29,753 bases of DNA from a virus (IMGVR_UViG_2541047785_000004:1-29753), one strand, 5' to 3'; positions 16,734-29,753 are shown, counted from the stretch's first letter. Translations and numbers: made by a program. Notes: generated from the letters alone by a model not told the origin.

Positions 16734-17023
16734 AGCCTGCTTCTCCTTGCCTTTCGGCACGTAAGAGGCTAACCTAGATTTGCCGTTCATAGATTGAGCC
16801 TCAGATTAATGTTAAGCGTCTTGCAGGACGCGTAATGTTAACTGGGCTTTTCTTTATCTGCCTTTTGATGTTCATGCCTGAGACAGATAGCCTCAAGCAC
16901 CCGCAGCGATTTTACTTACCCTCCCCTCTAGTTCATTCGATACTACAACTTTATTTTCTTTTCGTTGTCTATATAGTAAATAACATGTAATAAAAGTTAG
17001 TCACTAACAATGGAGAGATGCAT

Positions 17024-17242
17024 ATGCCCACACTTATCGGAAAAGTGCTTCGTCGATACACAAGTGCTGTAGCAACCCATGTTGACACCCATCTTGAGCA
17101 AACGACAAAATATCGTCTTACAGTTGATGCGAACGGTAATGCCACCCTGAACATAGAAAACCCAGAAGTTCAAGCAGACATCATCAAGAAAATGAAACAA
17201 TTGCGAAAACTACATAACCGTACAGACAAGGAAGTTGCTTAA
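17024..17242 (+). CDS. Small soluble hypothetical protein (72 aa), first gene of a coupled two-gene cassette
   Basis: GGAGAG 6 nt upstream of the ATG at 17024; stop overlaps the downstream start (TAATG at 17240-17244). Confidence 0.55.
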   Translation: MPTLIGKVLRRYTSAVATHVDTHLEQTTKYRLTVDANGNATLNIENPEVQADIIKKMKQLRKLHNRTDKEVA

Positions 17243-18033
17243 TGGGTCCATTGATTATAACTGTGATTCTCGTGTGTGGTTTTTGGTACACCGAGAATCA
17301 CTATCAATCGAGAATTCATCACGCAAGAACAAATGGGTGGTCATCCTATTTCTACGTTGCAATGCATGGGTGTCGTTTTGTTGCTCAAGGATTTCTTTTG
17401 ACGCTCGGGATCTACATGCTTTTCTGGCTACTGAACTCTATCCCACACATAATCAATATTTTCCGAGACAAACCTATAGAATGGCATTTTTTTAATTGGT
17501 TACTTGAAACCAAAGTGATGGAATTACCACTTTTTGCTGTCATCACCATCATTTTCGCTTGTTGTATTGCTTACTCTGAAGGGGTGGATGCGCGAAAAGA
17601 AATGGAGAATGAAGAAGCGCGGCAAAAGGCTTACAGGGAGATGGCATCAAAAGATTCACTAGAAAACCTATTGATCCAAGCCATTGACACAGAGATGCTG
17701 ATTTTTGTAACACTAAAATCCAGAAAAGTATATATCGGGTATGTGGCAGCACCACGTGTTGAATTCCACAACAGTGCGCATCTTGAGATCATACCATTCA
17801 TTAGTGGTTACAGAGATAAGGATTCACTACGCTACATAGAACAACACCGATACTATGATCTCTATCTATCCAAAGAAATCACATTTGAGTCCGAACCATT
17901 AAATTTACAACATTTTCGACACGTCATTCCTATCGAACAAATTGAAGCGATCTCGCTCTTTGATGAAAGCACGTACAGCGATTTTGAAAGATTTTCCGAG
18001 CCAATGCCTGACACAAAGCAATTACCAGTATAG
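17242..18033 (+). CDS. Membrane protein with three N-terminal TM helices and a ~150-aa cytoplasmic domain of unknown function, 263 aa
   Basis: Hydrophobic segments PLIITVILVCGFWY, FLLTLGIYMLFWLLNSI, LPLFAVITIIFACCIAY, then a charged soluble domain; low GC; opposite strand to the flanking early-operon genes. Confidence 0.7.
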   Translation: MGPLIITVILVCGFWYTENHYQSRIHHARTNGWSSYFYVAMHGCRFVAQGFLLTLGIYMLFWLLNSIPHIINIFRDKPIEWHFFNWLLETKVMELPLFAVITIIFACCIAYSEGVDARKEMENEEARQKAYREMASKDSLENLLIQAIDTEMLIFVTLKSRKVYIGYVAAPRVEFHNSAHLEIIPFISGYRDKDSLRYIEQHRYYDLYLSKEITFESEPLNLQHFRHVIPIEQIEAISLFDESTYSDFERFSEPMPDTKQLPV

Positions 18034-18237
18034 TATTACCCCCCCCTCTAACGATATACTAAAAAGCCGCTACAACTGGACTGCCCCTATAAAGTTGGAC
18101 AGTTCATGTTAAGCGGCTTTCAGGGCTTGACCCAACAGAAGTTAGATTGTAAGTATCCCGCTTAAACGGACCATCTGGTCTTTGTTCCACGGTGACGTGC
18201 TCATACTCATACCTCCTGAAATGTGGGAGATTTGAGT

Positions 18238-18366
18238 ATGGTTGTCCCTTATGAGAGAAATTTGCACGAAGTGGATAAGTTACCGGAGCTGAAGGTCCGC
18301 TGTGAGCGAAGAGCGGACCTGAGATTGTGGTATGCTAATTTATGGGGATCAGGTCAATTGTATTAG
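18238..18366 (+). CDS. Possible 42-aa small ORF with hairpin-sequestered RBS
   Basis: GGGAGA 7 nt upstream of the ATG at 18238; peptide MVVPYERNLHEVDKLPELKVRCERRADLRLWYANLWGSGQLY; the RBS pairs with the upstream ACCTCC; contains a 9-bp perfect stem (18293-18320). Confidence 0.25.
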   Translation: MVVPYERNLHEVDKLPELKVRCERRADLRLWYANLWGSGQLY

Positions 18367-19055
18367 TTATCTTTTTGCTTTTCTTTATCCCATTTCTTTG
18401 CAGTGGTCTGATACCACTCTTCACGTACTCGTTGTTCCTCGGCTCTGTCACTTGAATTATAGTTGTCTGTTTTAATTTTTTTGCTTCCATGGGAAATCGG
18501 CCTCCAGTCTTCTCTAATCTTTTTCACCTGCTCGGCTATCTGTGTCATTGGACTCCTTGCACCTAAGTAGCTAACCCCCTCGAAAGAAGCCATATCATAA
18601 GAATACTCATTCCGCTCTCTTTCAGTTGAGCCCGGCTGTTTAGACCAACTAATACTAACAGAATAAACTTGATCTTTAATCTGTTCATACTTACAAAGAC
18701 TGCTGTTGAGCGAATGGCCGTTTTTTAATACGCTAACCTTGCTAAATGGTATACCTATATTTTTTCTATGTTCAGCATTTACCAGTGGGGGATTAAATCC
18801 GATTTCAATATCATAGGCTGGGGCATTTCCGGTATTAGCAATATTGATATCAAAATAAAAAGCAGCCCAAGAATTTGGTTCAAGAGTCACAACGACGTGA
18901 GGTTGAACTGATGCGTCAACCATCCTTTTTGTCTCGTCTGCTAATAGCCTTGTTACTCTCCACAAGAAAAATGTAGCAACTGCTGTTAGCAATGCTGCCA
19001 AAGCGGAGATAAGTGTGCTTACTGTGTTTATATGCTCTGCGATAAATTCGATCAT
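18363..19055 (-). CDS. Membrane-anchored hypothetical protein (single N-terminal TM, ~190-aa soluble domain), 230 aa
   Basis: AAGGA RBS 7 nt upstream of the ATG; N-terminal helix VSTLISALAALLTAVATFFLW; own long (~450 bp) upstream region; low GC. Confidence 0.7.
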   Translation of the reverse strand: MIEFIAEHINTVSTLISALAALLTAVATFFLWRVTRLLADETKRMVDASVQPHVVVTLEPNSWAAFYFDINIANTGNAPAYDIEIGFNPPLVNAEHRKNIGIPFSKVSVLKNGHSLNSSLCKYEQIKDQVYSVSISWSKQPGSTERERNEYSYDMASFEGVSYLGARSPMTQIAEQVKKIREDWRPISHGSKKIKTDNYNSSDRAEEQRVREEWYQTTAKKWDKEKQKDN

Positions 19056-19543
19056 GAGTTGTCCTTGGGGGCGTACTAATTGTTTTCAAGACTAAAATAG
19101 CGCCGGGCTTGAAAAATTGCACACTTATGGTTCGATTTACCTCAACAGTTAAGGCTTCAGCTTCCCCCATGCACCTCACCCAGCTCAAGGCTGTATGATG
19201 TCTGACAAAGAACTTACTGACACTTGAAAACGAGGTAGCGGCTAGGATTTCTCGTAGGGGAAGGATTGAATACGAAGCCTGTATATTGCTCCGCGAACGC
19301 TGCTGAGAGCAGTTTAAATGTTGGGCGTTTATGTGGCCTTTCACTCACCAGCATGAGTTCAATGCCTGTGAATTACCGACAACAATATAAAGGGGGTGGC
19401 ATCATATATCCAAGGTAGAGTCAAATCCTTTAACTGGTTTTATGATCAGCGTCAATTGTTTAATTATTGAACGTTTACGAAGCGGCACGGGAGTCATATA
19501 ACTAATGGGCAGGTATAAGCCTGTATCACGAGGAATCAGTAAA

Positions 19544-19723
19544 ATGGCTGATGATAAGACCAAAATCGGTACCCCTGACAATGATTTAATAAGTATCAAA
19601 CAGGATTACGAAAGACGTGATTGGGCTGAAAAGTTTGGAGTTAGCGAGGCCAAACTTGTTCAAGCCGTACAGGCTGTAGGTCATTCGGCTAAGAAAGTAC
19701 AGGCATGGCTTAAAGACCATTAA
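19544..19723 (+). CDS. DUF3606-family small protein, ~59 aa from the ATG at 19544 (track ORF begins at 19505)
   Basis: MADDKTKIGTPDNDLISIKQDYERRDWAEKFGVSEAKLVQAVQAVGHSAKKVQAWLKDH matches the DUF3606 pattern (…D..Y…W..K.GVS…L..AV..VG.S…V…L). Confidence 0.65.
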   Translation: MADDKTKIGTPDNDLISIKQDYERRDWAEKFGVSEAKLVQAVQAVGHSAKKVQAWLKDH

Positions 19724-19728
19724 TATAT

Positions 19729-19756
19729 GAGCGCCTTTCTAGGCGCTTTTTTCTTT
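19729..19756 (+). terminator. Rho-independent terminator after the DUF3606 gene
   Basis: agcgcct-ttct-aggcgct followed by ttttttcttt. Confidence 0.7.
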
Positions 19757-19775
19757 GTCCTTTTGGAGATGATTT

Positions 19776-20054
19776 ATGGCTAATAATTTATTTATTACTT
19801 ATGATCTCATTAAAACGAAAGATTATGCGGCTGTGTATGATGCAATTAAATCTTTAGGAAATTGGGCTTTAACAACTGAATCGAACTGGTATGTTAACTG
19901 TAGTTACTCTGCCGAGGATGCAGCCAAAATTGTGAGGGCGGTCATGGATAGTGATGATAAACTTATTGTTGTAGACGCAACCAATAACTTAGTTTATTGG
20001 TACAATCTCTCTGATGAAGTTAGTAACCAAATTCAGACTGAGTGGTACAAGTAA
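19776..20054 (+). CDS. Hypothetical protein, 92 aa
   Basis: GGAG RBS; complete ORF MANNLFITYDLIKTKDYAAVYDAIKSLGNW...; followed by the aaaggggg/ccccccttt hairpin. Confidence 0.6.
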   Translation: MANNLFITYDLIKTKDYAAVYDAIKSLGNWALTTESNWYVNCSYSAEDAAKIVRAVMDSDDKLIVVDATNNLVYWYNLSDEVSNQIQTEWYK

Positions 20055-20055
20055 T

Positions 20056-20080
20056 TAAAGGGGGATACCCCCCTTTAATT
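20056..20080. terminator. Palindromic G/C hairpin (aaaggggg-atac-ccccccttt) between convergent genes, possible bidirectional terminator
   Basis: Perfect 8-9 bp stem flanked by A/T runs on both sides. Confidence 0.5.
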
Positions 20081-20282
20081 CAGAAACTATCATGATTGAA
20101 ACATTAAATATACTGGGTTTATTCTATCATCCCTGCTCTCTTGCTATATGTCCTGAAAGCGTTCTTTTAAACCTTCTGCTCAATATGTCCGGTAATGGCA
20201 CAAAGCGGACAACCACGCTAGCTCTACCCTATGCCATGAAAATGTCAATTCACATATTAATTAATGCTCTTAAATATCATCA

Positions 20283-20702
20283 CTACAATAAATACCGAAC
20301 ATCTCCCTGATAAAACGACAATATGCGCTTCATAACTTCGCTTTTACGGCACTCACTACAAATTATATTATGACGCCTGTCGTAACGACGTATTTCTCCG
20401 TCTGGTAATGACCAAATAAGGTCTGGATCAACCACAACTGGTTTCTTCACCTTTGCCCTCGATAGTTTTTTGCGGGCGTTTTGCCAGTCTTTACGTGCCT
20501 GCTCAGACGGGAATAACCCGTAGCCAGAGTTGTATACGTCACCATTCGCAACCAACTCCCTGGCAAGAACACTTATCTGATATCTTGTCGCCCCCGTTTT
20601 AGCTTCCAGTTGTCGTAACGTCTCGCGCCCACTCTGGCGTACGAGATCAACGATCTGCCCTTTAATTTTTTCCCGCTCTTCCTGTGTAAATACTTTTGCC
20701 AT
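20283..20702 (-). CDS. Hypothetical early-operon protein, 139 aa from the ATG at 20702
   Basis: GGGGAGGG RBS before the ATG at 20702; basic protein with a CxxC (SECRKSE) near the C-terminus; follows the P-like gene. Confidence 0.6.
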   Translation of the reverse strand: MAKVFTQEEREKIKGQIVDLVRQSGRETLRQLEAKTGATRYQISVLARELVANGDVYNSGYGLFPSEQARKDWQNARKKLSRAKVKKPVVVDPDLIWSLPDGEIRRYDRRHNIICSECRKSEVMKRILSFYQGDVRYLL

Positions 20703-20718
20703 AAGCCCTCCCCTGGAA

Positions 20719-21513
20719 TCACTTTTCCGACACAATACGACTGGAGGAATCGACAATCTGTCGGACAATATCCCGGTGCTTGTTCAGCTCCCGCAGCGCG
20801 GCGCAGACTCGCTCCCACTTCTGGACATGACTTTTCGCCCGGCGAAGTTCGCGGCTTGCCATATGCAGCGATGGTAAAATCAGGCCATTCGCTCGCGTTT
20901 CGGTGAACGATGGCAACGACTGCACAATGTCCCCCACAGTATCTGTTTTAATTTCTTCCTGTGTTGCCGCTTCCTGTACTGGTAACGCAACACCGGCTGG
21001 CTGAGGAAAGCCTTTACCAGGTGTTTTCGCTACCGATACAACTTTCGGCTCTGCTGGTAAATTTTCCCCGGTTTCTTTTACCAGCATCCACTTACACCCC
21101 TTCCCCTGTCCCAGCTTAATCGCCATGCCATCGCGGCAAAGCTTTTCCATCGCAGAAACCAGCGACCTGACGCAATCAGCACGCCCCACAGCAATTGCAA
21201 TCTCAGCGGTGGTCATTGCCCCACTATGAGCAAGTGTGGACAGGATTTCGCAGCGTTTCAGTGGCTCACGCTCTTTTCTACTGACCACCGGATGGGATTT
21301 TCTTTCCACTTTACACACCGTTACTTTTTTTTCTTTCACGCCCGTTTGTCGTTCTGAAACAGACCAGTAACCATTAACCGACACAACTTCTCCCAGCTCT
21401 TCGTACTCCCTCAGCATTTTAATCGCCTCTGCAGGTTCAATGCCCAAACTGGCAGCAAGCTCGGTGCACGTCACCTTTTGCATCGCTTTTAACGTATCAA
21501 TCAACGTTTCCAT
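20719..21513 (-). CDS. Replication-module protein at the P position (no Walker motif recognised), ~264 aa from the ATG at 21513
   Basis: GGGAGA RBS before the ATG at 21513; two winged-helix-like segments; immediately follows the O-like initiator. Function inferred from position only. Confidence 0.5.
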   Translation of the reverse strand: METLIDTLKAMQKVTCTELAASLGIEPAEAIKMLREYEELGEVVSVNGYWSVSERQTGVKEKKVTVCKVERKSHPVVSRKEREPLKRCEILSTLAHSGAMTTAEIAIAVGRADCVRSLVSAMEKLCRDGMAIKLGQGKGCKWMLVKETGENLPAEPKVVSVAKTPGKGFPQPAGVALPVQEAATQEEIKTDTVGDIVQSLPSFTETRANGLILPSLHMASRELRRAKSHVQKWERVCAALRELNKHRDIVRQIVDSSSRIVSEK

Positions 21514-21557
21514 CAAAATTTCTCCCGTTAAAATCATTTACCAATCTCAAACCAAAC

Positions 21558-22520
21558 TTATCCCCTGAACCCTGGCGGAATTTCGGTGTCCGGTTCAGAA
21601 ATATGATTCACACAACGCTGTACAGGCGAACGCCCCAGACGGATAACCAGCTCATCCCATTTATCGCGAAGTTTTGACGGACTCATGATGTTTTTTACCC
21701 AGAATGGATCCCGCTGTACCCGACCAAACATTTCGCAGATTTGTCTGTGAGTTCTGCCATCCAGCATCCGCATTATGCGCACGTCATTGGCCCATGCTGT
21801 CCAGTTGGGTTCTTTCGGTCGGGTGATCTCGCCATCATCGCTGGCGGCCTGTTCGTAAAGACTCACGATTCGCCCCCAGATCCACTGTGCGCATGCCAAA
21901 TCCTCCTGATTTCCCCACTGACGTTTTTTTGCACTAAACACAATCGCATCAGGATGTCGGGTTAAAAAGTCCTGTTCAGCCGTCTGCGGGTCCGGTTGCG
22001 AAGCTTCCGGACGAAAAGATCTTTTATCTGACGGATCAGGTTTTAATACTGACGGATCGGGGCCAACCATCGCCCCCCTAACCGGCTGTTTTTTACAAAC
22101 GGTTGATCCATCAAAATTTGACGGGTCAATCGTTGAGGGGGCAATATTTGACTGGTCAACTGTTAACGGGTCATTTTTTGCCGGGCTAATTTTTCTTTTC
22201 GGTTTATATGCCTCACGCGCCGCCTCAGCTGCTGCTTCGAGTTTTTCCACATTAAGGCGGTAGATATTGCTTTCATTACGCCCACCGACCTTACGCTCCT
22301 CCTTCGTCAGCCAGCCGTTCTTTTCCAGTTCCGCTATCGCCGCTTTAACCGTTGATTCACTCTTTGCCCCAATCTGACGACGAATGGTCTCCACTGCAGG
22401 CCATGACACACCTTCGTCATTGCTGTAGTCTGCAAGGCGAGCCATTACTGCCACCCTGGATAAGATCATGCCGGTGAAGGCGCACCCTTCCCAGACAAGA
22501 CCATGAAGCTTGCTGCTCAT
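21558..22520 (-). CDS. Replication initiator (lambda O analogue) carrying the origin iterons in its coding sequence, 320 aa
   Basis: N-terminal HTH-like region (VSWPAVETIRRQIGAKSESTVKAAIAELEKNGWL), central repetitive peptide (PLTVDQSNIAPSTIDPSNFDGSTV) encoded by DNA iterons, and an AT-rich tract on the 5' side of the iterons. Confidence 0.75.
   Translation of the reverse strand: MSSKLHGLVWEGCAFTGMILSRVAVMARLADYSNDEGVSWPAVETIRRQIGAKSESTVKAAIAELEKNGWLTKEERKVGGRNESNIYRLNVEKLEAAAEAAREAYKPKRKISPAKNDPLTVDQSNIAPSTIDPSNFDGSTVCKKQPVRGAMVGPDPSVLKPDPSDKRSFRPEASQPDPQTAEQDFLTRHPDAIVFSAKKRQWGNQEDLACAQWIWGRIVSLYEQAASDDGEITRPKEPNWTAWANDVRIMRMLDGRTHRQICEMFGRVQRDPFWVKNIMSPSKLRDKWDELVIRLGRSPVQRCVNHISEPDTEIPPGFRG
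22026..22205. repeat. Origin of replication: six iterons (TTGAC-GG-GTCAA type) plus adjacent AT-rich tract, inside the O-like gene
   Basis: ctgacggatcagg (22028-22040), ctgacggatcgg (22049-22060), ttgatccatcaa (22103-22114), ttgacgggtcaa (22118-22129), ttgactggtcaa (22148-22159), ttaacgggtcat (22163-22174), then tcattttttgccgggctaatttttcttttcggtttatatg. Confidence 0.7.
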
Positions 22521-22543
22521 AAAAAACCCCGAACACCGTGCTT

Positions 22544-22969
22544 TTAGTGCATCACCACAGCATTTCCTGCCGGGCCACCACGATTCATCTGATTGAAACC
22601 GGCGATTGCCACTGCGACAAAATCATCAGCGTCTCTCACCAGTCGTTCCCGCGTCTCCACCAACTCCCGAAAATAGACTGAACTGTGGCTGCGCATCCGG
22701 GCCACCAGCAGAGGTGGCATTGCTTTTTCGATCGCTGGTAACAACGCCTGAATTTTTTCAACCGCATCAGTAGTGTCTTTCTCCACCCAGCGGAAAATTT
22801 TCTGGGTATTACGAGCCAGGGCTTCTGGATGGCTGTCGTCGTACAGTTCCGGGGACGTCATTCCCAGTTCGAAATAAGCCCTGGTTATCTTGGCCGCCGG
22901 AACTTTTTCACCATCCGGACGCGCCCAAGCATTCATCGCCATGCGGATGTGTTCATGCTTGATTTTCAT
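22544..22969 (-). CDS. ydaT: YdaT-like protein (Rac-type, CII-position), 141 aa
   Basis: Begins MKIKHEHI... as recalled for Rac YdaT; second gene of the rightward early operon, after the Cro-like gene. Confidence 0.6.
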   Translation of the reverse strand: MKIKHEHIRMAMNAWARPDGEKVPAAKITRAYFELGMTSPELYDDSHPEALARNTQKIFRWVEKDTTDAVEKIQALLPAIEKAMPPLLVARMRSHSSVYFRELVETRERLVRDADDFVAVAIAGFNQMNRGGPAGNAVVMH

Positions 22970-22991
22970 GAATCATTTGCCTCTTGATGTT

Positions 22992-23288
22992 TCAGGTATG
23001 ATCAAATGAGGATTTGTTACTGTCATTTAGTTGCTTCACTGACATATTCTGCGAACAACATGCCGAACGTCGTAAATATGACCAGTCAATATCAGGACGA
23101 AGTTCTTCGCACAGAACCTCACCTCTTGTTGCACGTTCAATTGCTGGACATCTCTCGGCAGGCAATTGACGTACCCCTTTGATCCATTGATTTACGCTTG
23201 GAGGTGATACACCTAAAAGCCTAGCCATTGCTGATTGCCCACCGACAACAGCACAAGCTTGCTTGAATGAATAGTTCTCTTTTTTCAT
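22992..23288 (-). CDS. ydaS: Cro-like HTH regulator (YdaS-like), 98 aa
   Basis: MKKENYSFKQACAVVGGQSAMARLLGVSPPSVNQWIKGVRQLP... HTH; divergent from the repressor gene with operators between; matches Rac YdaS as recalled. Confidence 0.8.
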   Translation of the reverse strand: MKKENYSFKQACAVVGGQSAMARLLGVSPPSVNQWIKGVRQLPAERCPAIERATRGEVLCEELRPDIDWSYLRRSACCSQNMSVKQLNDSNKSSFDHT

Positions 23289-23411
23289 CGAATGAACTCC
23301 AAAAACACACAGAAATATTAGGCGACGCCTAACGTAAATGTCAATAGGCTATGCCTAATGCGATAAAGGTAGGGATTGCCTAATGCAATGAGCATAGGAG
23401 AATATTAAGCA
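23289..23411. promoter_or_regulatory. Right operator/promoter region: palindromic operators TTAGGC-N3-GCCTAA overlapping a TTGACA-N18-TAATAT promoter for the cro-like gene
   Basis: Perfect palindrome ttaggcgacgcctaa (23318-23332); taggctatgcctaa (23345-23358); half-site ttgcctaatgca (23376-23387); minus-strand -35 TTGACA (23339-23344), -10 TAATAT (23315-23320). Confidence 0.65.
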
Positions 23412-23888
23412 ATGCTTAGTGGTAAAGACTTAGGCCGAGCGATAGAGCAGGCCATTAACAAAAAAATCGCATCGGGATCCGTCAAATCAAAGGCGGAGGT
23501 CGCACGCCACTTCAAAGTCCAACCACCATCAATTTATGACTGGATTAAGAAAGGCTCTATAAGTAAAGATAAACTTCCAGAATTATGGCGTTTCTTTTCT
23601 GATGTTGTTGGTCCAGAGCATTGGGGGCTTAACGAATACCCCATACCAACCCCCACCAATTCAGATACAAAAAGTGAACTTTTAGATATAAACAACCTTT
23701 ATCAAGCAGCCTCTGATGAAATAAGAGCGATTGTAGCTTTCCTGTTATCTGGAAATGCTACAGAACCAGATTGGGTTGACCACGATGTTCGCGCCTACAT
23801 AGCAGCGATGGAAATGAAAGTGGGTAAGTATCTGAAAGCTCTAGAATCTGAACGGAAAAGCCAGAACATCACAAAAACTGGAACTTAA
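23412..23888 (+). CDS. racR: Prophage repressor (RacR-like), 158 aa
   Basis: AGGAG RBS; HTH AEVARHFKVQPPSIYDWIKKGS; divergent from the cro-like gene and flanked on both sides by the same operator repeats; matches Rac RacR as recalled. Confidence 0.8.
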   Translation: MLSGKDLGRAIEQAINKKIASGSVKSKAEVARHFKVQPPSIYDWIKKGSISKDKLPELWRFFSDVVGPEHWGLNEYPIPTPTNSDTKSELLDINNLYQAASDEIRAIVAFLLSGNATEPDWVDHDVRAYIAAMEMKVGKYLKALESERKSQNITKTGT

Positions 23889-23960
23889 ACTTATATGGTC
23901 TGACGGAAAACTCCTAGATTCCGTTATTTAACCCCCCCATCACTTTCTGCTGTCGCCATC

Positions 23961-24027
23961 ACCTATTAGGTTACGATCAAAACATTAGGCATAGCCTATT
24001 GACAATCAATTAGGCATTACCTATAGT
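23961..24027 (+). promoter_or_regulatory. Left operator/promoter region (pL-like): TTGACA-N17-TATAGT with overlapping TTAGGCAT(A/T)(G/A)CCTA operators
   Basis: ttaggcatagccta (23985-23998), ttaggcattaccta (24010-24023); -35 TTGACA 23999-24004, -10 TATAGT 24022-24027; mirrors the cctattgaca motif of the right promoter. Confidence 0.6.
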
Positions 24028-24207
24028 TCCAGCATACCACCCACCCCGCCCCACAGAACGCAGGGCAATACTTCGAGTTACCAGGCAGTGGTCAGGGGTT
24101 AAGTAGCCAGCCCGAGGCGTAAGAACATGACGGCAGGGTTCAACTTTAATAACTATGCAGCAGGTTTTTGTTCCGCTACCCCGGCGTTAAGGGGACATGA
24201 GGTCAAC

Positions 24208-24360
24208 ATGGATACTATCGATCTTGGCAACAACGAATCTCTGGTATACGGCGTGTTTCCCAACCAGGACGGCACATTCACCGCGATGACGTATACCAAA
24301 AGCAAAACGTTTAAAACCGAATCTGGCGCGCGTCGCTGGTTAGCCAGAAATACTGACTGA
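24208..24360 (+). CDS. DUF1391-like small early protein (YdaF/YdfA-like), 50 aa
   Basis: GAGG RBS; MDTIDLGNNESLVYGVFPNQDGTFTAMTYTKSKTFKTESGARRWLARNTD resembles the recalled Rac/Qin YdaF/YdfA family. Confidence 0.6.
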   Translation: MDTIDLGNNESLVYGVFPNQDGTFTAMTYTKSKTFKTESGARRWLARNTD

Positions 24361-24371
24361 TGAGGTTGACT

Positions 24372-24761
24372 ATGGAATTTAAAGATTTACCAAAAGAAAT
24401 CCAAGAAATTGCAGCACATACACTTCGTCAACGTCTGAACGAAGTTGCATTAGAAGCTGAAACGAAAAAAGACATTGATAATATGGCTCGTAATGTGCGC
24501 GATGCGTTTACCGGACTGTATTCTGTTTCTGTTGAGGACAATAACATTCCTGACGAACAGGAAGAGAGTACAGACCCCCACAAATTCTGGAAATCTGTAG
24601 AGGTCATTGCAAAAGCCAAACTACTGGAACTTAACAACTTATATCATCGTGAGAATGATGGTCGTCAATCTTTGCATCATCAGGGAGTCGCCACCCTGAT
24701 AGCTCTAACGAAAGAGCAAGGCGAATATCATCCAGTGGCATTAAACGACACTGTGAAATAG
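24372..24761 (+). CDS. Hypothetical early-left protein, 129 aa (3' end overlaps a convergent ORF)
   Basis: GAGG RBS 7 nt upstream of the ATG at 24372; amphipathic charged N-terminal region; last ~40 codons overlap the minus-strand ORF 24631-24930. Confidence 0.5.
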   Translation: MEFKDLPKEIQEIAAHTLRQRLNEVALEAETKKDIDNMARNVRDAFTGLYSVSVEDNNIPDEQEESTDPHKFWKSVEVIAKAKLLELNNLYHRENDGRQSLHHQGVATLIALTKEQGEYHPVALNDTVK

Positions 24762-24930
24762 TCCATCCATGTTTACGGGATAGATAAAGATATATCGCTT
24801 CGAAACCATCGACATGGTTTGGATAGCCTTCCTCAGCAGCAAGGTTATCCCCAAAACATTCAAGAATATAATTTAAACGCGCTGTTTCATAATGAATCTT
24901 CCAGCGAGTCTGATTTAGTTTGCTGACCAT
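24631..24930 (-). CDS. Hypothetical protein at the sieB-equivalent (convergent) slot, ~99 aa from the ATG at 24930
   Basis: GGAGGA 10 nt upstream of the ATG at 24930; MVSKLNQTRWKIHYETARLNYILECFGDNLAAEEGYPNHVDGFEAIYLYLSRKHGW...; convergent with the early-left operon. Confidence 0.45.
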   Translation of the reverse strand: MVSKLNQTRWKIHYETARLNYILECFGDNLAAEEGYPNHVDGFEAIYLYLSRKHGWTISQCRLMPLDDIRLALSLELSGWRLPDDAKIDDHHSHDDISC

Positions 24931-25278
24931 TTTAATTTTATCCTCCATTGAGGTTACTGGTTGAGAATGGAGACCACACGTGACAGCGCGTGGTCGTGCG
25001 CCGGACACGGATAAGAATCCGGCACAAACAGTTTACTGAAAGGATATATCCCTGAAAAGTCAGGGCATAACGCGAAAGCGCACGGCGAAGTCATTCCTCC
25101 CTTTGTTGTGTACCACTGACATCTTCGTCTGTGCGCTTCCGGTTGTGGCAATCCGCGAAATGGCGCGGCGGTAAGTATGGCGGGGTTATTCCTTCCCCGT
25201 TGAGGACACCGGGTTGTCAGGTTGACCATACGCTTAAGTGACAACCCCGCTGCAACAACCCATGTTGATTACCTTTTG

Positions 25279-25328
25279 GCGGGTATCCGTTTTTTGTTTT
25301 CCCTTGTGATACCCGCCCTTTTTAAAGT
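25279..25328 (+). terminator. Plus-strand intrinsic terminator-like hairpin (10-bp stem ggcgggtatc/gatacccgcc, 20-nt loop, then CTTTTTAAA)
   Basis: Seen directly; in the GC-rich non-coding stretch of the early-left operon. Confidence 0.45.
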
Positions 25329-25506
25329 GAATTTTGTGATGCGGTGAATGCGGCTCAGCGCACGCGGAACAGTTAAAAAGGCCAGTTGACTTCCGTATTG
25401 GTTCTTATGGGTGGGTTCTCTGTATCCGGCGTTAATTATTAACTGGTTAACGTCACCTGGAGGCACCAGGCACCGCATCACAAAATTCATTGTTGAGGAT
25501 GCGATA

Positions 25507-25689
25507 ATGGAAACGTTATTACCAAACGTCAATACGTCTGAAGGTTGTTTTGAAATTGGTGTCAGAATCAGTAACCCTGTATTTACTGAAGATGCCATTA
25601 ATAAGAGAAAACACGAACGGGAGCTATTAAATCAAATATGCATTGTTTCAATGCTGGCCCGTTTACGCCTGATGCAAAAAGGACGATGA
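25507..25689 (+). CDS. Small early protein (KilR/YdaE-position), 60 aa
   Basis: GAGGA RBS before the ATG at 25507; METLLPNVNTSEGCFEIGVRISNPVFTEDAINKRKHERELLNQICIVSMLARLRLMQKGR; stop overlaps the next start (ATGA). Confidence 0.5.
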   Translation: METLLPNVNTSEGCFEIGVRISNPVFTEDAINKRKHERELLNQICIVSMLARLRLMQKGR

Positions 25690-25895
25690 CAATGAATACA
25701 GTATTTGCACTCGTTCTGACGGTTTTTCTTAATACAGGCGAGCCAGTCGATCTTGTTATTGGTATACATGACTCAATGAAAGAATGCATGGCTGCCGCAG
25801 CGGAACAGAAAATTCCCGGCAACTGTTATCCGGTTGATAAAGTTATTCGCATGGACAATAACGAAATCCCGGCAGGACTTAAAACAGCACCGTAA
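25686..25895 (+). CDS. Small protein with hydrophobic N-terminus (signal/anchor-like), 69 aa
   Basis: MTMNTVFALVLTVFLNTGEPVDLVIGIHDSMKECMAAAAEQKIPGNCYPVDKVIRMDNNEIPAGLKTAP; translationally coupled to the upstream ORF. Confidence 0.5.
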   Translation: MTMNTVFALVLTVFLNTGEPVDLVIGIHDSMKECMAAAAEQKIPGNCYPVDKVIRMDNNEIPAGLKTAP

Positions 25896-25975
25896 TTAAT
25901 ATCCGGTTTCATTTTTATATGCCAGCAATGGCAGGGATTTGTTCACCCTTAAATCTGTAATGAGGTTAAAACAAA

Positions 25976-28447
25976 ATGAGTAAAGTCTTTATTTGCGCCG
26001 CCATTCCGGACGAACAGGCAATAAAGGAAGAAGGTGCAGTCGCTGTAGCCACTGCCATTGAAGCCGGCGACGAACGCCGCGCCCGAGCCAAATTTACCTG
26101 GCAATTCCTGGAGCAATATCCGGCTGCTCAGGACTGCGCTTATAAATTTCTTGTTTGCGAGGATAAACCCGGCATGCCCCGCCCTGCCATCGACTCCTGG
26201 GATACCGAATATATGCAGGAAAACTGCTGGGATGAGGAATCCGCTTCCTTTATTCCGGTCGAACCAGAATCCGATCCGATGAACGTCAATTTTGACAAGC
26301 TGTCCCCTGAAGTACAGAACGCGGTCCTGGTTAAGTTCGACACATGTGAAAACATCACCATTGATATGGTTATTAGCGCACAGGAATTGTTGCAGGAAGA
26401 CATGGCAACATTCGACGGACATATCGTTGAAGCGTTGATGAAAATGCCAGAAGTTAACGCCATGTATCCGGAGCTTAAGTTGCACGCCATTGGGTGGGTT
26501 AAGCATAAATGTATTCCTGGTGCTAAATGGCCCGAAATTCAGGCAGAGATGCGCATCTGGAAAAAACGTCGCGAAGGTGAACGCAAGGAAACCGGAAAAT
26601 ACACGTCTGTTGTTGATCTCGCCCGCGCCAGAGCCAATCAACAGTACACTGACAATTCAACAGGAAAAATCAGCCCGGTCATTGCTGCCACTCATCGCGA
26701 ATACAAGCAGACATGGAAAACACTGGATGACGAACTGGCCTACGCTCTCTGGCCTGGTGATGTGGATGCCGGAAACATTGACGGCAGCATCCATCGCTGG
26801 GCAAAAAATGAAGTTATCGACAACGACCGCGAAGACTGGAAGCGTATCTCGGCATCAATGCGCAAACAGCCTGATGCCCTTCGCTACGACCGCCAGACTA
26901 TTTTTGGCCTTGTCCGTGAACGTCCGATCGACATTCACAAAGACCCTGTGGCACTGAACAAATACATTACTGAATACCTGACTACAAAGGGCGTGTTTGA
27001 AGATGAAGGAAGAAATCAGAGCGCAACTGATACTCTCTCGTCGCCAGTACCAGAAACTGATGCAGTGGAAACGGCAATTCCGGACAACGAAAAAACCGAA
27101 TGCAAAGTGGAAGTCGAACCATCTGTAGAGCGTGAGGGGCCGTTCTACTTCCTCTTCACCGACAAGGATGGCGAAAAATATGGTCGCGCAAACAAACTTT
27201 CTGGTCTGAATAAGGCGCTGACTGCAGGGGCTACTGAAATCACGAAAGAAGAATATTTTGCCCGTAAAAACGGTACATACTCAGGTTCACAACAAAATAC
27301 TGGTGCATCTGACACGACCGCACAACCAGAGCCGGTAAAAGTTACCGCTGACGAAGTAAACAAAATTATGCAGGCAGCCAATATCACCCAGCCTGACGCC
27401 GATAAGTTGCTTGCTGTATCACGTGGTGAATTTGTTGCAGGGATTAGCGACCCGAATGATCCGAAATGGGTGAAGGGGATTGAAACCCGCGATTCAGTGA
27501 ATCAGAACCAGCAAGAAACGGAACAGAACGACCAGAAAGCGGAACAAAACAGCCCAAATGCGTTACAAAACGAGCCAGAAACGAAACAACCTGAGCCAGT
27601 AGCGCAACAGGAAGCGGAAAAAGTCTGCACCGCCTGCGGTCAGACCGGCGGCGGCAACTGCCCTGATTGTGGTGCGGTGATGGGCGACGCAACATACCAG
27701 GAAACATTCGATGACAAGAACCAGGTTGAAGTTCAGGAAGACGATTCGGAGAAAATGGAAGGCGCTGAACATCCACACAAAGAGAATGCTGGCAGCGCTC
27801 AGGATCACGCCAGCGATAGTGAAACTGGCGAGACGGCAGATCCCTTAATTACGGTGAACGGTCATCACGTTATCACATCCACCAGCAGGACGTGTGACCA
27901 TCTAATGATCGACCTTGAAACCATGGGAAAAAATCCTGATGCCCCGATTATCTCAATAGGTGCAATATTTTTCGATCCTCAAACCGGAGATATGGGACCG
28001 GAATTTAGTAAGACTATCGATCTGGAAACTGCTGGCGGAGTCATTGATCGGGACACCATTAAATGGTGGCTTAAGCAATCACGCGAAGCGCAATCTGCCA
28101 TTATGACCGATGAAATCCCGTTAGATGATGCACTGTTACAATTGCGGGAATTTATCGACGAAAACTCCGGTGAATTTTTTGTTCAGGTCTGGGGAAATGG
28201 AGCCAACTTCGACAACACGATTTTGCGCCGTTCATACGAACGGCAGGGGATCCCCTGCCCGTGGCGTTACTACAACGATCGCGATGTACGCACAATCGTT
28301 GAGCTGGGGAAAGCCATAGACTTCGATGCCAGAACGGCTATTCCATTCGAAGGTGAGCGCCATAATGCACTTGATGACGCCCGTTACCAGGCAAAATACG
28401 TTTCAGCAATCTGGCAAAAACTGATCCCGAATCCGGTTGATTTTTAA
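25976..28447 (+). CDS. RecE-like large recombination protein with a CxxC…CxxC zinc ribbon and a C-terminal DnaQ-like DEDDh 3'-5' exonuclease domain, 823 aa
   Basis: Central region (EREGPFYFLFTDKDGEKYGRAN…, DADKLLAVSRGEFVAGISDPNDPKWVKGIETRD) resembles recalled RecE N-terminal/middle segments; zinc ribbon CTACGQTGGGNCPDCG; exonuclease motifs MIDLETMG (Exo I), WGNGANFDNTIL (Exo II), HNALDDARY (Exo III, DEDDh). Confidence 0.8.
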   Translation: MSKVFICAAIPDEQAIKEEGAVAVATAIEAGDERRARAKFTWQFLEQYPAAQDCAYKFLVCEDKPGMPRPAIDSWDTEYMQENCWDEESASFIPVEPESDPMNVNFDKLSPEVQNAVLVKFDTCENITIDMVISAQELLQEDMATFDGHIVEALMKMPEVNAMYPELKLHAIGWVKHKCIPGAKWPEIQAEMRIWKKRREGERKETGKYTSVVDLARARANQQYTDNSTGKISPVIAATHREYKQTWKTLDDELAYALWPGDVDAGNIDGSIHRWAKNEVIDNDREDWKRISASMRKQPDALRYDRQTIFGLVRERPIDIHKDPVALNKYITEYLTTKGVFEDEGRNQSATDTLSSPVPETDAVETAIPDNEKTECKVEVEPSVEREGPFYFLFTDKDGEKYGRANKLSGLNKALTAGATEITKEEYFARKNGTYSGSQQNTGASDTTAQPEPVKVTADEVNKIMQAANITQPDADKLLAVSRGEFVAGISDPNDPKWVKGIETRDSVNQNQQETEQNDQKAEQNSPNALQNEPETKQPEPVAQQEAEKVCTACGQTGGGNCPDCGAVMGDATYQETFDDKNQVEVQEDDSEKMEGAEHPHKENAGSAQDHASDSETGETADPLITVNGHHVITSTSRTCDHLMIDLETMGKNPDAPIISIGAIFFDPQTGDMGPEFSKTIDLETAGGVIDRDTIKWWLKQSREAQSAIMTDEIPLDDALLQLREFIDENSGEFFVQVWGNGANFDNTILRRSYERQGIPCPWRYYNDRDVRTIVELGKAIDFDARTAIPFEGERHNALDDARYQAKYVSAIWQKLIPNPVDF

Positions 28448-28513
28448 TGTTCAACCCTGATCGCCGTCCCCGAATTATATTGGCGGCGGTCATGCTGTAA
28501 GGCACGTGACCAC

Positions 28514-28765
28514 ATGTACGAATTAACTCTATCGCCAGCAGAGATTCAAGAGATCACGAAATACGAGCGATACACAAAACAGCAACACCAGTTAAGGCTG
28601 CACGGTATCCCATTTGTAATCGGTCCTAAAAACGAACCAATAGTTCTTCGCAGGGATATTCCACACGGACTGACTACGATGCCAAAAGCACCTGAACTGG
28701 TTTCCGCTGAACCCGATTTTGAGGCGCTGAACAATGGGAAGACCAAGAAAAAACAAAAAAGATAA
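28514..28765 (+). CDS. xis: Putative excisionase (Xis-position protein), 83 aa
   Basis: Immediately upstream of and overlapping the integrase start as in lambda; N-terminal MYELTL and basic C-terminus NNGKTKKKQKR loosely resemble lambda Xis (MYLTLQEW…NGKKAKS). Confidence 0.5.
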   Translation: MYELTLSPAEIQEITKYERYTKQQHQLRLHGIPFVIGPKNEPIVLRRDIPHGLTTMPKAPELVSAEPDFEALNNGKTKKKQKR

Positions 28766-29753
28766 TGCACTACCACCGCGTGTTAGATCGAATGGTTACA
28801 GTTACGTATGGAAACCCGAAGGAAGCACAAGAACTATAGGGCTCGGAAGAGTGTGGGAAACCAGCGTAGCTAAAGTCTGGCAAAATTATGAGCTGGAAAA
28901 AGCAAAACTCCACAACATAATGACAGTAGCTAAATTATGGCACATGTTTATGGACTCCCCTGCATTTACAGAACTGGCCCCCCGAACCCAAAAAGATTAT
29001 CGGCAACATCAAAGGGCATTGTTGGCAGTATTCGGAAAAGTGCTTGCTGATAATGTAAAAATTGAACAGGTAAGAATTTTCATGGATAAGCGAGGACTTG
29101 AGAGCAAGACCCAGGCAAACCATGAACTGGCAAGTCTGAGCCGTGTATACGGATGGGGATATGAGCGTGGGTATGTGAAAAATAATCCATGCAAAGGAGT
29201 CAGAAAATTCACACTTAAAGCCCGTACTGTTTACATCACCGATGAACAGTATGCTGCAATATATGCGGAAGCAATTCCACAGTTACGTATTGCAATGGAG
29301 ATATCCTATCTTTGTGCGGCAAGGCTCGGTGATGTACTCGAGCTGAAATGGCAGGATATTATGGAGAAAGGGATTTACATTGAGCAAAACAAGACCGGCA
29401 CTAAACAAATCAAGGAATGGTCTCCGCGATTACGTACGGCGATCCAGTTAGCCCGAAATGTATCTTCCGGCACATGCGAGTATGTGATCAACACAACCAA
29501 AGGCGGGAAGGTAATAGCCAAGACGCTGAACAACTGGTGGAATCAGGCTAAACGTGCAGCCGAGCAAAAAGCCGGCGTTCCGTTTGGGTGCAACTTCCAT
29601 GACATAAAAGCCAAAGGGATTTCAGATTACGAAGGCAGCAGTCGCGACAAACAAATTTTCAGTGGACACAAAACAGAAAATCAGGTGTTGATTTACGATC
29701 GTAAAACCAAAATAACACCAACACTGGATTTGCCGCTTGTGGTCAGTAAGTAG
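28734..29753 (+). CDS. int: Tyrosine integrase, lambda Int family, 339 aa (stop at window end)
   Basis: N-terminal arm-binding-like region MGRPRKNKKDNALPPRVRSNGYSYVWKPEGSTRTIGLGR; catalytic region IAMEISYLCAARLGDVLELKW…IYIEQNKTG…FHDIKAKG…SGHKTENQVLIYDRK carries the R…K…H…H…Y signature in lambda Int order. Confidence 0.9.
   Translation: MGRPRKNKKDNALPPRVRSNGYSYVWKPEGSTRTIGLGRVWETSVAKVWQNYELEKAKLHNIMTVAKLWHMFMDSPAFTELAPRTQKDYRQHQRALLAVFGKVLADNVKIEQVRIFMDKRGLESKTQANHELASLSRVYGWGYERGYVKNNPCKGVRKFTLKARTVYITDEQYAAIYAEAIPQLRIAMEISYLCAARLGDVLELKWQDIMEKGIYIEQNKTGTKQIKEWSPRLRTAIQLARNVSSGTCEYVINTTKGGKVIAKTLNNWWNQAKRAAEQKAGVPFGCNFHDIKAKGISDYEGSSRDKQIFSGHKTENQVLIYDRKTKITPTLDLPLVVSK

Follow-up and report, generated by a model that had tools for sequence, protein, structure and literature searches.

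The gene studied here encodes a replication initiator and lies in a viral stretch of DNA of 29,753 nucleotides (IMGVR_UViG_2541047785_000004:1-29753), whose full length is referred to below as the window. The gene lies within the early-right operon of a lambdoid prophage. Pfam recognizes HTH_36 alone in its product, at amino acids 25-71, and PHROG 391, 'replication initiation O-like', matches the protein over its full length (residues 1-320 against profile positions 1-298 of 298, E 6.6e-112). Within the gene there is an array of short repeats that is very probably the vegetative replication origin of this Escherichia coli prophage, located inside its own initiator gene as in lambda. The RefSeq label of the identical gene is 'helix-turn-helix domain-containing protein' only, and no origin is marked in public annotation. 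The features of the locus are listed in Table 1.

Table 1. Features of the initiator gene and its surroundings, in coordinates of the window (AF2, AlphaFold2; ORF, open reading frame; pLDDT, predicted local distance difference test).
Feature	Position	Strand	Evidence or remarks
Initiator gene, 320 amino acids, 963-bp ORF	21558-22520	-	ORF call, PHROG 391, Pfam
DNA-binding winged-helix domain at the N-terminus, with one long helix	22206-22520, codons 1-105	-	AF2
Zone of DNA-level constraint	21981-22205, codons 106-180		Coincides with the disordered linker
5'-side A+T-rich tract	22186-22215		70% A+T; ranks second among the least stable 30-mers of the gene
Six 15-bp units, candidate iterons	22101-22190		Each with a 12-bp dyad TTGAC-NN-GTCAA (TTGACCCGTCAA class)
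12-mer of unit 1	22178-22189	-	TTAGCCCGGCAA, read on the coding strand
12-mer of unit 2	22163-22174	-	ATGACCCGTTAA, read on the coding strand
12-mer of unit 3	22148-22159	-	TTGACCAGTCAA, read on the coding strand
12-mer of unit 4	22133-22144	-	TTGCCCCCTCAA, read on the coding strand
12-mer of unit 5	22118-22129	-	TTGACCCGTCAA, read on the coding strand
12-mer of unit 6	22103-22114	-	TTGATGGATCAA, read on the coding strand
Spacer between repeat classes	22059-22100		Contains GGGGGGCGATGG, a G/C run on the - strand; protein sequence variable, no synonymous variation
Two GATCCGTCAG copies	22049-22058 and 22028-22037		21 bp apart, one Dam site in each
3'-side moderately A+T-rich segment	22010-22050		Overlaps three GATC sites; best candidate for the unwinding tract
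Inverted repeat GTCCGG-N11-CCGGAC	21990-22012		Around a HindIII site (AAGCTT), just past the A+T-rich segment
Helical C-terminal domain, homologue of the lambda O C-domain	21636-21989, codons 178-295	-	BLASTP, tblastn, AF2 (pLDDT 76-93)
Disordered tail VQRCVNHISEPDTEIPPGFRG	21561-21623, codons 300-320	-	Matches the extreme C-terminus of host DnaT; AF2
DUF1627 gene	20719-21537		Weak MarR/HTH_20-like N-terminal matches
YdaT/CII-like gene	22544-22969	-	Upstream of the initiator gene
YdaS/Cro-like gene	22992-23288	-	Upstream of the initiator gene
pR-like promoter TTGACA-18-TAATAT	23315-23344	-	Upstream of ydaS-ydaT-initiator; 10/12, consensus match only
RacR-type repressor gene	23412-23888	divergent	

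Tandem Repeats Finder reported 5.0 copies of a period of 15 at 22111-22185, and a repeat search returned a family with 15-15-15 spacing together with a separate pair, CTGACGGATCAGG and CTGACGGATCGGG, found 21 bp apart at 22028 and 22049. From one 12-mer to the next the pitch of the six units is exactly 15 bp. Self-complementarity reaches 10 of 12 positions in three of the 12-mers and 6 of 12 in the other three. When up to two mismatches to TTGACNNGTCAA were allowed, 20 sites were found in the 29.7-kb window, five of them within a single stretch of 100 bp. When the window was shuffled 300 times with its dinucleotides preserved, the largest cluster contained one site (161 shuffles), two (134) or three (5), and never five. 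A scan of the window detected no second cluster of the TTGAC-NN-GTCAA motif outside the array. An isolated near-perfect dyad, ATGACCAGTCAA, with one mismatch, is located in the ydaS/cro-like gene at 23078-23089, ~0.9 kb upstream of the array, and might represent either a chance occurrence or an auxiliary site.

The two GATCCGTCAG copies, which lie 45 bases 3' of the array, make up a second class of sites. The hexamer CCGTCA is common to them and to the best dyad, and the pair is the most conserved element of the initiator family. Dyads and GATCCGTCAG copies together span codons 111-165. The array is translated as PLTVDQSNIAPSTIDPSNFDGSTV (residues 118-141), and we infer that the DNA repeats give rise to this repetitive peptide, (xDPSx)n, as a by-product within a tolerant disordered linker. 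An initial annotation of this DNA had already placed the repeats here and described their reading as a repetitive peptide, and both points are confirmed. Its count of six repeats is accurate for the main array, but eight elements of two classes are present once the GATCCGTCAG pair is counted; the spacing of 15-30 bp that it gave must be corrected, as the main array is strictly spaced at 15 bp.

The domain organization of the initiator was examined in an AF2 model built on 33 homologues. The N-domain contains four helices, a beta-hairpin wing and a helix at residues 91-105, with residues 1-90 forming the winged helix (pLDDT 72-87). Its nearest solved folds, with weak E-values of 2e-3 or worse, are dimeric winged-helix repressors of the ArsR/MarR/PadR type that read dyad operators, and the N-domain is presumed to be the reader of the iterons. 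It does not match Phage_rep_O (PF04492), a family that lambda O matches at E 5.7e-36. Residues 108-171 are predicted to be a disordered linker (pLDDT <50). At the C-terminal side, residues 166-293 align by BLASTP with the C-domain of lambda O (37% identity over 128 amino acids, E 2e-26), and tblastn with the initiator matches the O genes of lambda, 434, H-19B and others. Because the linker of the model comprises residues 108-171, the candidate iterons sit exactly in the disordered region between domains, which is the place of ori-lambda in O.

Diversity at each codon position (pi1, pi2 and pi3) was calculated for 44 distinct variants of the gene, taken from 80 IMG/VR loci and GTDB genomes. The ratio of diversity at third positions to that at first and second positions, pi3/pi(1,2), was 0.4-0.9 in codons 106-180, compared with 4-90 in most flanking blocks of 15 codons; among C-domain blocks the exception was codons 226-240, with a ratio of 1.8. 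The value of pi3 was itself 0.014-0.058 in codons 106-180 versus 0.07-0.28 in most flanking blocks, and positions 21981-22205 were the only ones in which pi3 did not exceed pi1 and pi2. For these codons, the variability of the amino acids is similar to that of the folded domains or higher. The serines of the repeats are encoded by TCA in essentially all copies and variants, and unit 6 (TTGATGGATCAA) retains the dyad in inverted form with a change in the peptide from DPS to DGS. No overlapping ORF was found across 21981-22205 in an ORF scan. Altogether, it is shown that the DNA of the linker is constrained as DNA, not as protein.

Conservation of the repeats was analyzed in 14 homologues. The genes were those of E. 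coli, of the phages SfIV (Shigella), phiP27, YeP1 (Yersinia), LLS and Kp4866-6 (Klebsiella), and of prophages from Erwinia, Salmonella, Serratia, Edwardsiella, Citrobacter, Pantoea and Klebsiella. The fraction of matches at lags of 15 and 30 was 0.37-0.63 in the linker of all 14, versus 0.18-0.32 in control segments. The sequence GATCCGTCA is present in 13, with 1-3 copies and spacings of 12, 18, 21 or 24 bp. In phiP27, the most divergent homologue (its N-domain is 45% identical), GATCCGCAA is found in place of GATCCGTCA, and the two best-matching conserved copies are both altered to GATCCGCAA. This architecture is maintained across three types of C-domain: lambda-O-like, Phg_2220_C and the phiP27 type, which is followed by DnaC- and DnaB-like genes. 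Close relatives (L008, L012, L029 and P0001-P0017) differ by whole 15-bp units, with proteins of 303, 305, 308, 310, 315 and 320 amino acids, and the array therefore gains and loses units in frame.

Additional information was provided by five loci (L084-L087 and L090) whose C-domain is highly identical to that of the window, with unrelated N-domains and different repeats. At the same position of the linker, these loci carry other repeats (five CATCGGGTCAAAATG; AATGCGGAACC/CCGCAAAC). The repeats are followed by an A+T-rich ACAGAGAATACAACAGAGATTAC tract, at the place of the 3' segment of the window, and then by the same conserved junction. In L084-L087 (1669-1914) and L090 (1627-1938) the N-domains have no Pfam match, and the A+T-rich tract encodes TENTTEITTEN. 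To judge from their sequence, these two repeat sets are two further, unannotated origin types. Repeat sequence changes with the N-domain and independently of the C-domain, a pattern that iterons and their reader are expected to show. Hence, the view that protein and DNA site co-evolve, also advanced in the initial annotation, agrees with the fact that the same C-domain, when joined to another N-domain, carries other repeats.

The existence of a cluster that is not attributable to chance, together with DNA constraint, conservation and co-variation, leads us to view the array as a lambda-type origin within the initiator gene. That origin iterons lie in an O-like initiator gene had been proposed before, and the proposal gains support from the position in the linker, the constraint on DNA, the 14 homologues and the repeats of the sibling loci. 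A tentative sequence of events is as follows. Once the prophage is induced, the initiator would be made by transcription from the pR-like promoter. The array and the GATCCGTCAG pair would be occupied, and the DNA distorted, by the N-domains of the initiator, probably in dimeric form at each dyad. The GATC-dense, moderately A+T-rich segment on the 3' side (~22010-22050) would then open, and the C-terminal part of the initiator might recruit host DnaB, via the DnaT-like tail described below and either the host primosome or DnaB-DnaC.

Several observations weigh against this interpretation. The diversity test rests on prophage sequences that recombine and are not independent. When lambda O was used as a control (46 distinct IMG/VR variants, 99-100% identical), only a weak dip was seen at the iterons; the control is, however, uninformative because the retrieved set is almost invariant. 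Three of the six units are degenerate, and the centre-to-centre spacing of 15 bp is far tighter than in lambda, with its iterons of ~19 bp, and lacks helical phasing. A strongly A+T-rich unwinding element is absent, as both flanks have 70% A+T and are at about the 95th percentile of the window. The invariant DPS tripeptides are compatible with a motif at the protein level, and recruitment of DnaB through the C-terminal part is inference only.

One might consider that the repeats matter as a peptide, so that (xDPSx)n would be a flexible linker or a short linear motif and the DNA would have no cis-acting role. A unit length of exactly five codons, the invariance in 33 homologous proteins of D155-P156-S157 and P163, residues that the GATCCGTCAG pair encodes, and the in-frame variation of unit number among relatives of 303-320 amino acids are what such a peptide would display. 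A peptide does not explain, however, that third codon positions are as constrained as the first and second in the linker only, or that serine is TCA in essentially all copies and variants. Dyad symmetry is a property of DNA and has no meaning for a peptide, and in unit 6 the dyad is kept while the peptide is altered; furthermore, the linker is predicted to be disordered and its amino acids are more variable than those of the folded domains. We thus regard a purely peptide-level role as very improbable. An RNA structure, either in the messenger or in an antisense transcript, is the least probable explanation of all, even if region 21981-22205 shows fold z-scores of -3.3 (sense) and -2.1 (antisense). 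Such scores arise automatically because inverted-repeat arrays yield them. As loops need at least 3 nt, arms of 5 bp around a centre of 2 nt are unable to fold into a hairpin. In addition, Rfam gave no match, neither strand showed a promoter-like site within the array or close to it, and the sibling loci swap the repeats for unrelated ones without keeping any fold. The TTGAC hexamers were also considered as promoter elements, and were rejected because the array contains no sigma-70-like pair.

A different possibility is that the sites act in cis without being an origin: they might be autoregulatory or roadblock operators, or binding sites for the DUF1627 protein, with replication starting elsewhere. 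The weakness of the A+T-rich tract leaves room for such a role, as do the MarR/HTH_20-like matches of DUF1627, weak as they are, and the dyad-like ATGACCAGTCAA isolated in ydaS at 23078. The array follows the initiator N-domain, however, through three C-domain types and varied downstream genes, most of them without DUF1627; its place in the linker is that of ori in lambda, and the dyad motif forms no other cluster in the window. Operators of this kind are accordingly unlikely, if less so than the peptide or the RNA, and an origin within the initiator gene is the explanation that we favour.

The A+T-rich tract that the initial annotation had described on the 5' side is indeed present, but it is weak and is matched by 22019-22048, the least stable 30-mer of the gene (70% A+T; for low duplex stability, near the 95th percentile of the window). 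Its assignment as a lambda-like order was not upheld. In lambda O the order is iterons, then A+T-rich tract, then C-domain, and the lambda tract is thus promoter-distal, on the 3' side of the iterons. The BLASTP alignment opens at lambda O residue 155, within the A+T-rich tract of lambda, facing residue 166 of the window protein, and thereby places the equivalent of the lambda tract at ~22010-22050 (codons ~157-170), on the 3' side. Because the 3' tract has only 70% A+T and the 5' tract is equally weak, this unwinding site is a candidate, not a demonstrated one.

Four GATC sites, at 22018, 22034, 22055 and 22105, form the densest cluster of Dam sites in the window (4 in 100 bp), and two of them fall inside the conserved GATCCGTCAG elements. 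This clustering hints at control of the candidate origin by methylation or SeqA. Matches to DnaA boxes were limited to 9-mers with one mismatch, at 21604, 21773 and 22243, and none was found in the origin core. The inverted repeat GTCCGG-N11-CCGGAC lies inside the constrained zone and is conserved at the DNA level even among siblings with other N-domains; it appears to be a junction at which modules recombine. A palindrome exists in lambda at a comparable place.

A P-like gene had been supposed to accompany the initiator gene. When the genes downstream of the initiator were examined in Pfam and PHROG searches, we found no P, DnaC-like or DnaB-like gene among them; they include DUF1627, DUF977/Ren-like, ORFs of unknown function and DUF968. 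The last 21 residues of the initiator (VQRCVNHISEPDTEIPPGFRG) align end to end with the extreme C-terminus of E. coli DnaT (…SEPDxxIPPGFRG). A profile made from ten phage tails, used against 177,635 PDB sequences, recovered DnaT chains alone (E 3e-5 to 3e-4). DnaT was not recovered from the PDB with a profile of the whole family; the match was lost because the family alignment mixes two tail types, and the tail-only profile recovered it. No similarity to the DnaT N-domain or to its three-helix domain that binds single-stranded DNA was detected in the initiator. Judged by these comparisons, the initiator is not a DnaT homologue, and the label 'primosomal protein I' given to phage relatives is misleading because it is the initiator tail (…SEPDTEIPPGFRG) that matches the C-terminus of DnaT.

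The distribution of tails was then compared with that of lambda P genes. A tail of the GFRG type on an O-like C-domain was found at nine loci, all without P: the window, SfIV, SKA5, mEp460, and prophages of Citrobacter, Pantoea, Klebsiella, Salmonella and Raoultella (the window, L093, L094, L176, L185, L186, L187, L191 and L192). At the six loci with other tails (…AWENTL, …GWRDVL, …GIEDDL…), which belong to Erwinia, Salmonella, Serratia, Edwardsiella, Pantoea and Morganella (L082, L181, L183, L184, L189 and L190), Phage_lambda_P was the very next gene in every case. The …WENTL type resembles the end of lambda O. Such a perfect split, 9 versus 6, has a Fisher probability of 1/5005, a value to be read with the phylogenetic non-independence of the 15 loci in mind. 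In phages LLS and Kp4866-6 the GFRG tail is joined to a different C-domain, and no loader gene is present either.

As phage P, DnaC and DnaB genes are absent, the tail is proposed to bring in host DnaB. It could be a portable element that mimics the C-terminus of DnaT from the host and plugs the origin-bound initiator into the host primosome or into DnaB-DnaC loading, an idea that we put forward tentatively and hold to be somewhat less probable than its negation. We also propose that the DnaT-like tail and a lambda-P gene may be alternative solutions for relatives that share the N-domain, the linker and the O-like C-domain. The structural papers on DnaT that were consulted give no role to the extreme C-terminus of the protein. 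Modules with O only are found in 34 of 314 lambdoid phages, and their replication has been described as 'not yet understood' (Genome Res 2025, PMC12315714). If true, mimicry by the tail would explain such modules and point to a function for the tail of DnaT itself.

Transcription from the pR-like promoter would run through ydaS, ydaT and the candidate origin. On the other side, the genes after the initiator (20283-21537, - strand) are DUF1627 and then DUF977, annotated in PHROG as 'Ren-like exclusion protein', and neither is loader-like. Among complete genomes, the best match is E. coli N18-04097 (NZ_CP047277.1), with 100% identity at 21400-22700 and 98.7% at 20304-29753; farther to the left, the window is mosaic with respect to this genome. 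RefSeq annotation was for this reason applied to the right part only, and the left part was read from the ORFs of the window itself. Region 16918-20304 has no counterpart in NZ_CP047277.1, the closest genome, and contains ORFs without known function (PHROGs 11802, 3630/23864 and 1090; DUF3606), of which some lie on the opposite strand; its appearance is that of a moron block or mosaic insertion set between the nin-like and replication regions. At least 80% of a 1.3-kb query is matched in 1502 of 5426 complete E. coli genomes, O157:H7 strains included. The family of the window initiator is also used by the cultured phages SfII, SfIV, phiP27, YeP1, LLS and phiNP.

Origins of the lambdoid kind, located in the initiator gene, are well known, and this member is absent from the literature searched. 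As in lambda, the candidate origin occupies the linker that separates the DNA-binding N-domain from the C-domain, with multiple dyad-symmetric sites (candidate sites in this case), a repetitive peptide as by-product and transcription from pR passing through; the C-domain is homologous to that of lambda O (37% identity). Unlike lambda, the N-domain is HTH_36 instead of Phage_rep_O, the C-terminal tail is different and a P gene is missing, and the sites are six 12-bp dyads at 15 bp plus two GATCCGTCAG copies, with a weak A+T tract, compared with the four iterons of ~19 bp in lambda.

Lambda, P22, phage L and Stx phages carry distinct iterons inside their own initiator genes. The window resembles gene 18 of P22, gene 18 of phage L and the Stx phages in that each specificity class of initiator has its own iterons in its own coding region. 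In style, the array is close to that of phage L, in which a short repeat of 11 bp is present in six imprecise copies. Stx phages (933W, P27) have six-iteron origins, and their iteron number differs from that of lambda as does unit number among the relatives of the window. Repeats and N-domains are, however, unrelated to those of P22, L and Stx phages, which encode either a helicase (gp12 in P22 and L) or P beside the initiator. Papers on 'Eru' types of Stx phages list HTH_36 and YdaT proteins without iterons, and no useful description was found in the literature on the origins of SfII and SfIV.

The O protein of phage LLS shares with the window an N-domain 65% identical over amino acids 1-94, a 15-bp array, the GATCCGTCA/GATCCATCA pair, the GFRG tail and the lack of a helicase or loader gene. 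The LLS C-domain is Phg_2220_C-like, unlike the lambda-O-like one of the window. The LLS origin is not described in PMC12315714. A likeness to iteron plasmids (RepA/RepE/pi) is also seen, as these have a winged-helix initiator and an array of repeated sites beside an unwinding region, the latter a candidate in the window. Iterons in plasmids are direct repeats of ~17-22 bp, about two helical turns, outside the rep gene, and DnaA boxes are usually nearby. In the window, by contrast, dyad 12-mers at 15 bp are inside the gene, and nearby 9-mers that resemble DnaA boxes have one mismatch at best.

This member combines a presumed HTH_36 reader, new candidate sites in the form of 12-bp dyads at a pitch of 15 bp, a conserved pair of GATC-bearing sites and the lack of a P gene. 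The replication module is common, as it is found in E. coli prophages and, in related form, in cultured Shigella, Stx, Yersinia and Klebsiella phages. The candidate origin is narrowed to ~225 bp, which provides a defined cis element for studies of prophage induction and copy number and a candidate compact replicon for vectors. The N-domain and the dyad may constitute a specificity code with which cross-talk among co-resident prophages could be predicted. Lastly, the mutual exclusion of the DnaT-like tail and P makes the question of how O-only lambdoid phages load DnaB open to testing.

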